64,000 nt of DNA from Lichenihabitans sp. (GTDB taxonomy: Bacteria; Pseudomonadota; Alphaproteobacteria; Rhizobiales; Beijerinckiaceae), in NCBI GenBank assembly GCA_965214365.1, contig CBDCBM010000004.1:1926881-1990880 (forward strand), given 5' to 3'. The notes beneath the pieces are model-generated. The model ran no database searches. It was given only the letters and a program-made list of their open reading frames with translations, and was not told the origin of the DNA. Made by a program: the position numbers and the translations under genes. This document shows positions 38,118 to 40,839 of the stretch, piece after piece. Numbering within the stretch: position 1 is the first letter of the stretch; each line of letters begins with the position of its first letter.

Positions 38118-38454
38118 CACATCGATCTGTGGGCGAACGACCATGCAAGGCAAGGTCCAGAGATGGTAACTTGGGGAGCTTACGGCCATGATCAAGCATC
38201 AGCCGCGAGGCGGGCGCGCAACTAGAAGCGCGAACGGAGAGGCGTGCAAAACACCGAGGGGCTGTCTAGGGGCAGGTCCATCCCCGCCGCCTGCAAACCC
38301 CGAACGAGATCGCAAGCGCTGCTCTGTTCCTGGCGTCGGACGAGAGCGGTTTTGTGACTTGATCCCCCCGCAAGTCGCCCGAAAGGGTTGGGATAAGCAA
38401 TACAACGGGACGATAGGCGCGGGCAGGGGTACTTTCGTTTCGGCTGCCTTATAA

Positions 38455-38490
38455 AGAAACGCCGCTAACGATAGATCGTTAACGGCGCCT
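38455..38490 (-). terminator. Intrinsic (Rho-independent) terminator of the micropeptide gene
   Basis: The minus strand reads cgccgttaacgat-ct-atcgttagcggcg followed by tttcttt: a 13-bp stem with one U-G pair, a few nt after the TAA stop. Confidence 0.75.
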
Positions 38491-38493
38491 CCG

Positions 38494-38571
38494 TTAGTGA
38501 TGAAACAGCGCAATTAGAATAATGATCGGGATCGGCACGCCGATCAGCCACAGTAAAAGCGATCTACCCAT
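38494..38571 (-). CDS. 25-aa single-helix membrane micropeptide (MGRSLLLWLIGVPIPIIILIALFHH), not in the ORF track
   Basis: Hand translation runs from ATG 38571 to TAA 38494. A strong Shine-Dalgarno GGGAGGA lies 8 nt upstream. The peptide is fully hydrophobic and has its own promoter and terminator. Confidence 0.82.
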   Translation of the reverse strand: MGRSLLLWLIGVPIPIIILIALFHH

Positions 38572-38600
38572 GACGTCAGTCCTCCCTATCGATGACCGCT

Positions 38601-38626
38601 AACGTCGAATGTTTTGATGTGGTTCC
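38601..38626 (-). promoter_or_regulatory. EcfG (sigmaT/RpoE2) general-stress-response promoter
   Basis: The minus strand reads GGAAC-cacatcaaaacattcga(17 nt)-CGTT, about 30 nt upstream of the micropeptide ATG. This matches the alphaproteobacterial EcfG consensus GGAAC-N16/17-CGTT. Confidence 0.7.
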
Positions 38627-38713: not shown

Positions 38714-39748
38714 TCAGCGAGAACCGCGCCGAGGCGCTTTCGGCTGCTGCTGAGTAATGCAGTGGATATTGCCTCCGCCATCCGCGATCCCGTGGCCGGG
38801 CACGATCACGATCTCGCGCTCCGGAAAAGCCATGCCGAGGACGCGAGCCGCCTCAGCGTCGGTGACCGCGTCAAAGCCCGGCATGATGATGGCTCCATTG
38901 GCGAGGTAGAAATTGACATAGGACAGCGCCACGGCCTGACCGTTGTCGTCATAATTGCGGGGCGGCATCGGCAGATCGAGGATCGTGAGGCGCCGTCCAC
39001 GGGCATCGATGGCCTTCTCGAGCACCGCCCTCGCCTCGGCCAGGATGGCGAAGTCGGGATCGGAGCGATCCGAGGTCGCCGGCAGCAGCACATGCGCGGG
39101 TTTATAAAAGCAGCATAGGTTGTCGACGTGACCTCGGGTCTCGTCGTTGGTGAGCCCGCGCGGCAGCCAGACGACACTCTCCACGCCGAGAGTCGCCATG
39201 AGATTCGCCTCGATATCCGCCTTGTCGAGATGCGGATTGCGCTTGGGGTCGAGCAGGCATTCCTCGGTGGTGAGCAGCGTCGCCTCGCCATCGACATGGA
39301 TGGAGCCGCCCTCCAGGATTTGGGGACCGACGATCCGCCGCGCCCCGGCGAGGTCGAGGATGCGGCGCGCCAGACGGGCGTCGCGATCGAACCCGTCGTA
39401 GCAAAGCCCCCAGGCGTTGAAGCCCCAATCGACCCCGGCGAGATCGCCGGCCTCGTCGACCACGAAGGTCGGGCCGATGTCGCGGGTCCAGCTATCGTCG
39501 AGCTCGGCCGGCACGAGGTCGGCGGCCCCCGCCGTCAAGCGGCCGGCCTCGTCGAGATCCTCCAGGCGGACCATCAGCGTCACCGGCTCATGCGCGGCAA
39601 TGGCCTTGACGACAGCGGCGAAAGCCTCGCGCGCCGGCCCGAGGCCATGACGCCAAAGGTCCGCCCGGCAGGGCCATGCCATCCAGCAGCGCTCGTGCGG
39701 CTCCCACTCGGCGGGCATGCGGCGACGTTGCGGCGCCCCGCGGGTCAT
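38714..39748 (-). CDS. aguA: Agmatine deiminase family protein
   Basis: RMPAEWEPHERCWMAWP, DDSWTRDIGP, FNAWG, LEGGSIHVDG, GHVDN, SYVNFY and GGGNIHCITQQQP (catalytic Cys). Start moved to 39748. Confidence 0.92.
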   Translation of the reverse strand: MTRGAPQRRRMPAEWEPHERCWMAWPCRADLWRHGLGPAREAFAAVVKAIAAHEPVTLMVRLEDLDEAGRLTAGAADLVPAELDDSWTRDIGPTFVVDEAGDLAGVDWGFNAWGLCYDGFDRDARLARRILDLAGARRIVGPQILEGGSIHVDGEATLLTTEECLLDPKRNPHLDKADIEANLMATLGVESVVWLPRGLTNDETRGHVDNLCCFYKPAHVLLPATSDRSDPDFAILAEARAVLEKAIDARGRRLTILDLPMPPRNYDDNGQAVALSYVNFYLANGAIIMPGFDAVTDAEAARVLGMAFPEREIVIVPGHGIADGGGNIHCITQQQPKAPRRGSR

Positions 39749-40839
39749 AGTCCGGCGGCCTCCACCGCGAGGCTGATCGCGGCCTCCTGATGCGGCAGGA
39801 GCGCGTGACCCGGATAGGTCGAATAGATCGGCAGGAAGGGATCGTCGATCGGCGTCTTGAGGCCGCTCAGCTCCTCCATCACCGCAAGGCCGCAATAGGG
39901 GACATAACTCGCCGAATAGCCGCCCTCATGCGACATGGCGAGCCGGCCTCCGCACAGGTCGTCCGCCGCGCGCATGAGCAAGGCCGTCAGGCTCCGGAAG
40001 CTGCCCGAATGAAGCATCATGCGGCCGAGCGGGTCGGCGACCGAAGCGTCGAAGCCCGAACAGACGACGATGGCGTCCGGCTCGAAGCGCCGCAGCGCCG
40101 GCAGGACGATGCGCTCGAAGGCGCTGAGATAGGCGCCATGGCCGCAGCCCGCTGGCAGCGGCACGTTGATGTTCGTGCCCTCGCCGGGTCCCGCGCCACG
40201 CTCCGCCAGCGTCCCCGAACCCAGCGGAAACAGCCCGTCCTGGTGGAGCGAGATGGTCAGGACGTCGGGATCCGCATAGAAAGCGGATTGGGTGCCGTTC
40301 CCATGATGCACGTCCCAATCGACGATGGCGACGCGGCCGAGCGCATGGGTTTTGCGCGCCTTCAGAATCGCGATCGGCACGTTGCCGAAGAGGCAAAAGC
40401 CGAGGCCAAGGTCCCGCTCGGCGTGATGGCCCGGAGGCCGGACCAGAGCGTAGCCATTGGCGACCCGCCCGGTCAGAACGGCATCGAGCAGCGCATAGGT
40501 GCCCCCAACGGCCAGACGAGCGATCTCGAAGCTGCCTGGTCCGAAGGGTGTCAGGTGGCTCGCGTCGCCGCCCCGGTCTTTGCTGAGAGCCTTGATCCGG
40601 GCGATGTAGTCGCGGTCGTGAAAAAGCGCGAGGTCGTCCTCGTCGAGCGCAGCAGAGGGGCAAAAGGTCAGGCGGTCGATGAGGCCCGAGACTTCCAAAA
40701 GATTGCGGAAGCGTCGCTTGGTGGCGGCATTTTCCGCATGTTCGCCCGGTTCGATGGTCAGGCCCGCCGGGAAGATGCTCGCCGCGTTGCCGGTATCGTG
40801 CCACAGGTAAAGCTCATGGAAATTCCAGCCTGTCGACAT
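39745..40839 (-). CDS. Class II histone-deacetylase-like amidohydrolase (HDAH family)
   Basis: YLWHDTG, RPPGHHAE, GFCLFGN, DWDVHHGNGT, SGFDASVADPLG and HEGGYS. Its stop overlaps the aguA ATG (ATGA). Confidence 0.92.
   Translation of the reverse strand: MSTGWNFHELYLWHDTGNAASIFPAGLTIEPGEHAENAATKRRFRNLLEVSGLIDRLTFCPSAALDEDDLALFHDRDYIARIKALSKDRGGDASHLTPFGPGSFEIARLAVGGTYALLDAVLTGRVANGYALVRPPGHHAERDLGLGFCLFGNVPIAILKARKTHALGRVAIVDWDVHHGNGTQSAFYADPDVLTISLHQDGLFPLGSGTLAERGAGPGEGTNINVPLPAGCGHGAYLSAFERIVLPALRRFEPDAIVVCSGFDASVADPLGRMMLHSGSFRSLTALLMRAADDLCGGRLAMSHEGGYSASYVPYCGLAVMEELSGLKTPIDDPFLPIYSTYPGHALLPHQEAAISLAVEAAGL

Follow-up and report, generated by a model that had tools for sequence, protein, structure and literature searches.

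A predicted stress-induced membrane micropeptide of 25 residues, missed by annotation in Lichenihabitans and conserved in three classes of Proteobacteria

A short locus on the minus strand of the window, the 64,000-nucleotide stretch of Lichenihabitans sp. DNA analysed here, is very probably a self-contained, monocistronic gene of ~140 nt that encodes a 25-residue inner-membrane micropeptide, is predicted to be transcribed from a general-stress promoter, and may specify an accessory subunit of a larger membrane protein. The original prediction was of a complete unit, hidden from annotation, whose product is a small membrane protein induced by stress; most of it holds, on comparative evidence. 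The gene is unannotated, and the conservation of coding-type substitution, ORF length and the Shine-Dalgarno (SD) sequence among homologues shows that the peptide ORF is a genuine gene under protein-level selection.

Organization of the locus

In order of transcription, the elements of the predicted unit are as follows.

38622..38626, (-) strand: -35 element GGAAC of the putative EcfG-type (ECF15) promoter, from direct reading and comparison with homologues
38601..38604, (-) strand: -10 element CGTT, separated from the -35 element by 17 nt and from the ATG by 29 nt
38580..38586, (-) strand: SD sequence GGGAGGA, separated by an 8-nt spacer from the ATG at 38571-38569
38494..38571, (-) strand: 25-codon peptide gene, from ATG 38571 to TAA 38496-38494, with the predicted product MGRSLLLWLIGVPIPIIILIALFHH
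38451..38492, (-) strand: predicted intrinsic terminator, consisting of a hairpin (38492-38455) and UUUCUUUAU, from fold energy and the U-tract

A GGAAC-N17-CGTT motif, the sequence GGGAGGA, an ATG at 38571, a 25-codon ORF closed by TAA, and a hairpin with a U-tract had all been called on this strand, and every one of them was found at the minus-strand coordinates listed above. The terminator hairpin was missed by a simple terminator scan and was revealed by folding. Its 13-bp GC-rich core extends to 17 pairs (38492-38455) and is followed by UUUCUUUAU; the predicted fold has an energy of -26.5 kcal/mol, compared with -14.2 +/- 2.8 kcal/mol for shuffled sequences (z -4.45), and none of 200 shuffles folded as well. 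Downstream of homologous peptide genes that, like this one, stand alone, a perfect-stem hairpin with a T-tract was present in 10 of 48 cases, as opposed to 0 of 96 control windows, which indicates that the layout of a complete unit recurs.

The peptide gene is present in a single copy in its own genome and lies within the 518 nt that separate two unrelated metabolic genes. Its upstream neighbor encodes an agmatine deiminase of the PAD_porph family; on the downstream side lies a 177-aa ORF without a Pfam match, followed by a gene for a MaoC-like dehydratase. Two minor features were noted in the vicinity. Within 38714-40839 on the (-) strand, the agmatine deiminase gene and a gene for an HDAC-family deacetylase overlap by the sequence ATGA at 39745-39748, and a weak terminator-like hairpin lies on the (+) strand at 38589-38608, opposite the promoter and 5′ UTR. 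The latter is probably due to chance, as one such hairpin was found and 0.8 are expected from shuffled sequence.

Conservation and coding evidence

The predicted peptide has one hydrophobic span. In its homologues the motif G11-x-P13-x-P15 is invariant, and positions L6, L7, W8, I14, I17 and I18 come close to invariance over three proteobacterial classes. Searches of related genomes returned peptide homologues in 34 of 61 at E <= 10, about 25 of them clear full-length matches, and contigs representing one genome per species yielded at least 179 confirmed loci in the three classes. The original prediction mentioned similar unannotated peptides in Alphaproteobacteria. These are real, and the range also takes in Beta- and Gammaproteobacteria. 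Carriers include Reyranella, Bradyrhizobium, Rhodopseudomonas palustris BisB18, Mesorhizobium, Rhizobium, Ensifer, Azospirillum, Sphingobium and Caulobacterales among the Alphaproteobacteria, Achromobacter, Bordetella, Alcaligenes and Pigmentiphaga among the Betaproteobacteria, and Pseudomonas among the Gammaproteobacteria. In an even sample of the alphaproteobacterial class, 42 of 298 good-quality genomes (~14%) carried the peptide. As many as four copies occur in some genomes, in varying genomic contexts.

Patterns of substitution were measured on a comparison set of 106 distinct nucleotide versions of the peptide gene, drawn from the Alpha-, Beta- and Gammaproteobacteria. All 106 ORFs are 24-28 codons long, begin with M(G)(R/K)x and keep the G-x-P-x-P motif at mid-span. 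Entropy at the first, second and third codon positions was 0.67, 0.115 and 1.35, respectively, and dN/dS was ~0.14. The loci had been collected by peptide similarity, which accounts for part of the low dN. Variation at third positions, conservation of start and stop codons, and the SD sequence are unaffected by this ascertainment. Of the 106 homologues, 104 have an SD-like sequence between -16 and -4. Between the locus in the window and those of the same genus, nucleotide homology is confined to the ORF and its SD sequence, and the 1.5-kb flanks are unrelated. Since the flanks differ even within the genus, synteny is unusable as evidence.

The promoter and its probable regulator

The original prediction assigned the promoter to EcfG, the sigma factor governed by PhyR and NepR. 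As evidence for a promoter, genome-wide enrichment of the motif was considered and rejected: GGAAC-N16/17-CGTT occurs 76 times in the genome, and 75 occurrences are expected from base composition. The chance probability of a copy in a given window of ~95 nt is ~7e-4. The motif alone proves nothing, and the case for the promoter consequently rests on comparison.

In the comparison set, 35 of 106 peptide genes carried the strict motif between -110 and -15 on the sense strand. The antisense control gave 0 of 106, and ten other windows gave 0-1 of 106 each. The promoter recurs among Alphaproteobacteria at a fixed place relative to the ATG: the distance from CGTT is mostly 25-40 nt in the homologues and is 29 nt here. 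The strict promoter is thus found in only about one-third of the homologues as a whole; among the 25 closest to the Lichenihabitans peptide it is kept in 21, despite spacers that have diverged.

The components of the general stress switch are encoded in the same genome. A gene for PhyR lies at C1:434948-435721 (335 bits vs. a cut-off of 240), a divergent NepR is encoded at C1:436082-436174 (52.7 bits), and nepR is preceded by a copy of GGAAC-N16-CGTT at C1:435807. The segment C3:454210-454668 codes for an EcfG-like sigma factor (NF009199, 241.6 bits vs. a cut-off of 219), which also resembles the N-terminal domain of PhyR. Elsewhere in this genome the strict motif precedes genes typical of the stress regulon, for KGG-repeat, DUF1328 and phasin-like proteins, and a gene for an unassigned 45-aa protein. 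Other ECF sigma factors recognize similar GGAAC/CGT boxes. The position-conserved motif, the presence of PhyR, NepR and EcfG, and the occurrence of the same motif at nepR, KGG and DUF1328 genes together point to EcfG, and control of the peptide gene by EcfG is well supported by inference. To our knowledge EcfG is absent from Beta- and Gammaproteobacteria, so regulation of the peptide would be lineage-specific.

The 45-aa protein is a candidate for a second unannotated stress micropeptide. Its ORF, on the (-) strand of C3 near position 402728, follows a GGAAC-N17-CGTT motif and encodes a predicted single-span product, MTEQPIKLEQTDARQGKTGLGVRYVLMGGLALIILAGIVIFMTVH, without a Pfam match.

A candidate partner protein

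A gene for a membrane protein of ~300 residues adjoins 58 of the 106 peptide genes on the same strand, in all three classes and in both orders. The peptide gene comes first at 38 loci (Rhizobiales and Betaproteobacteria), with separations of 3-150 nt and the smallest gaps at 3-12 nt. On plasmid pAA02 of Aminobacter aminovorans, the peptide stop codon overlaps the SD sequence of the partner. The reverse order is seen at 20 loci, which include all 10 from Pseudomonas as well as those of Xanthobacteraceae MAGs. The remaining 48 peptide genes, among them the one in the window, are solo. Viewed from the side of the larger protein, ten related genomes have a close partner homologue, and in 7 of them a peptide gene is adjacent to it. 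When the partner gene DNA was used as a query, the start of homology in all of the plasmid records listed coincided with the ATG of the peptide (query position 110-122).

In the Lichenihabitans genome under study the partner gene is unlinked to the peptide gene. It lies on a different contig (C3:127714-128622, (+) strand), downstream of a DUF2382/DUF2171 stress gene. An obligate pairing of the two was considered and rejected, as five fairly complete genomes of the same genus (G005, G016, G021, G022 and G025) contain 1-4 copies of the peptide and no partner at E <= 1e-10.

The partner has the conserved motifs SAVSW...FRDTAHGF...GGRxRD and matched no family in Pfam or NCBIfam. Its homologues number more than 7,650 and go by the name of "hypothetical" or, in one case, "PhnA-like"; one of them is named from Lichenihabitans psoromatis. 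An AlphaFold model (pLDDT 73) is all-helical, comprising about four predicted membrane helices and a soluble domain that is likewise helical, and a fold search of the PDB with this model returned no relative (best E 1.2). No natural fusion of peptide and partner occurred among 120 partner homologues.

It had been suggested that the peptide might regulate a membrane complex. That guess gains a concrete candidate in the ~300-residue neighbor of 58 of the 106 genes. Binding of the peptide to this protein, of which it would be an accessory or regulatory component, is the likeliest of the modes of action considered; we put it forward tentatively, with somewhat less than an even chance of being correct. 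More speculative is the proposal that the two proteins form an undescribed two-component inner-membrane complex, conserved in the three classes and wired to the stress response of each lineage (EcfG in Alphaproteobacteria), in which the peptide might serve as the limiting, stress-dosed on/off subunit. Because several relatives have the peptide and no partner, a role independent of the partner, exerted on the membrane or on a different protein, must exist as well or be the main one.

Alternative explanations

The alternative that deserves most attention is that the peptide acts by itself. A stand-alone stress peptide in the manner of Pmp3/YqaE or DUF1328 could act on the bilayer or on another membrane protein, for example by altering membrane order or permeability under osmotic, heat or desiccation stress. 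The solo arrangement of the Lichenihabitans gene, with its own promoter and terminator, speaks for such an activity, as do the other solo copies that bring this class to 48 of 106, the five same-genus genomes that lack any partner homologue, and the small membrane proteins (DUF1328 and the unassigned 45-aa product) among the genes preceded by the motif here. Against it, conservation of the peptide is very strict for a helix simply embedded in lipid: the invariance of G11, P13 and P15 and the near-invariance of the six other positions named above suggest a specific protein contact. The tight, two-way linkage of 58 of 106 peptide genes to one protein family also counts against a peptide that works alone, and we regard this explanation as possible and on balance unlikely. 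A chance ORF accompanied by chance signals, with no gene at all, might be entertained for a reading frame of only 25 codons whose promoter motif occurs across the genome at the rate expected by chance. More than 100 homologues, with conserved length, SD sequence, promoter position and coding-type substitution, together with the occurrence of the peptide in 42 of the 298 genomes sampled from Alphaproteobacteria, leave it a negligible probability, and the comparative data can be taken to have effectively refuted it already.

Two further explanations accept the ORF or its transcript as functional and differ as to how. A membrane toxin resembling those of type I toxin-antitoxin systems (Ibs, ShoB, DinQ, TisB) would depolarize the membrane under stress and promote dormancy. 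The length of 25 residues, the extreme hydrophobicity and the stress induction suggested by the promoter all match such toxins, and up to four copies per genome in varying contexts would be in keeping with them. In contrast to these systems, the peptide gene has a strong SD sequence that is not covered by the predicted hairpin, and its conserved operon coupling to a 300-residue membrane protein, in either order, is atypical of type I systems. Type I toxins are usually narrow in phylogenetic range, whereas the peptide spans three proteobacterial classes. No antisense partner was detected in two tests, both of them weak: no sigma-70-like promoter for an antisense RNA was found on either strand between 38100 and 38900, and an Rfam search of the locus gave no RNA family, its sole match being a meaningless one of the hairpin to a plant miRNA model. 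A toxin of this kind therefore appears quite improbable. Less probable still is a leader peptide (uORF) that regulates the downstream gene of ~300 residues, or a non-coding sRNA with a fortuitous ORF. The ORF does lie 3-150 nt upstream of the partner at 38 loci, with a stop codon that sometimes overlaps the partner SD sequence, and the predicted transcript in the window is of sRNA size. A leader is at odds with the reversed order at 20 loci and with the 48 solo genes, including the present one with its own terminator. Because a peptide of 25 residues cannot leave the ribosome tunnel before termination, it is also too short to sense membrane insertion co-translationally. A function purely at the level of RNA conflicts with the codon-position pattern described above, in which amino acids and not nucleotides are conserved.

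The preferred explanation, a small membrane protein under EcfG control, suggests the following course of events. Under stress PhyR would be phosphorylated and would capture NepR, and EcfG would be freed. EcfG would then transcribe the peptide gene from about position 38594 as a short monocistronic mRNA, which the strong SD sequence would cause to be translated efficiently. The peptide would insert so as to span the membrane once, each of its ends carrying a basic residue, and the invariant G-x-P-x-P motif is predicted to kink or break its helix at mid-membrane. It might subsequently dock on the ~300-residue protein and serve it as an accessory or regulator, a final step that we hold with less confidence than we would require to call it probable.

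Relation to known systems and annotation

The peptide makes a solid new family of small proteins within a known kind of element, as opposed to a new kind of system. Pfam and NCBIfam profiles gave no family at E <= 10, a result that is not absolute, as short hydrophobic queries fare badly under the filters of HMMER. In particular, no profile match was obtained to named families of small membrane proteins such as DUF1328, DUF3309, Pmp3/YqaE, entericidin, KdpF and CydX. A collection of 15 billion proteins does not contain the exact peptide, and its relatives occur there only as sporadic JGI "hypothetical" calls. Searches of 8.4 million papers by peptide fragments, and further literature searches by partner motif and topic, found no description of the peptide family or of its partner. 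For plasmid pAA02, the PLSDB gene table of the RefSeq record, which is known to be incomplete, lists the partner and omits the peptide.

The closest regulatory context is the EcfG regulon (ECF15; SigT, RpoE2), whose GGAAC-N16/17-CGTT promoter and PhyR-NepR-EcfG switch have counterparts in this genome. EcfG/RpoE2 regulons are rich in small proteins without an assigned function, and the peptide gene fits the same kind. It differs from the regulon in that the family extends to Beta- and Gammaproteobacteria and in that EcfG dependence is here deduced from the promoter and its setting. In Sinorhizobium meliloti, Schlueter et al. (2013, PMC3616915) found no predicted function for 150 of 202 rpoE2-dependent genes, and they correlated five new protein-coding genes with intergenic regions dependent on rpoE2. 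The peptide sequence was not found in the accessible part of the supplements to that study.

With respect to mode of action, a precedent is provided by accessory small membrane proteins, namely KdpF with KdpABC, AcrZ with AcrB, CydX with CydAB, MgtS with MgtA, and sarcolipin with SERCA. These proteins resemble the peptide in their size of 20-50 residues, in having a single span, in often being encoded in the operon of the partner in either order, and in having been missed by annotation. The peptide shares no sequence similarity with them, they do not have its mid-helix G-x-P-x-P motif, and its candidate partner is itself uncharacterized. A second point of comparison is offered by DUF1328 (UPF0391), DUF3309, Pmp3/YqaE, GlsB/YeaQ/YmgE and entericidin, which are likewise tiny membrane proteins or lipoproteins driven by stress sigma factors. 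The DUF1328 gene of the same genome shares the strict promoter motif with the peptide gene. At 24-28 aa the peptide is shorter than any of these and has no profile match.

Bacterial micropeptides of fewer than 30 residues are systematically overlooked by annotation. The present family is unusually well conserved; it offers a clear handle on its regulation, and a concrete family of candidate partners is at hand. Peptide and partner are two large "dark" families whose function could be tested by simple genetics, and the peptide gene would add a defined member to a largely uncharacterized EcfG regulon.

Genes adjacent to homologous loci

In seven loci of the same genus (L004-L009 and L022), a gene for periplasmic glucan biosynthesis of the MdoG/OpgG type (Pfam match 7.4e-176 at L007) is found upstream of the peptide gene at a distance of 107-190 nt, a neighborhood that fits osmotic adaptation. 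Outside the genus, the pair of peptide and partner genes is found beside further stress genes, which encode an entericidin lipoprotein, DUF892 (YciE/YciF-like), trehalose-6-phosphate synthase, and DUF6766 and KTSC-domain proteins. The loci concerned are those of Bordetella tumbae (L067), where the entericidin gene is just upstream of the peptide gene, of Aminobacter, Mesorhizobium and relatives (L057, L071, L060 and L075), and of plasmid pAA02 of A. aminovorans (L120). The partner was also seen at L005, L057, L084, L120 and other loci. At four Achromobacter loci (L059, L081, L092 and L096), a candidate small proline-rich ORF that ends in ...DPTPPAPDPRxPGxIDLA is located directly upstream of the peptide gene.
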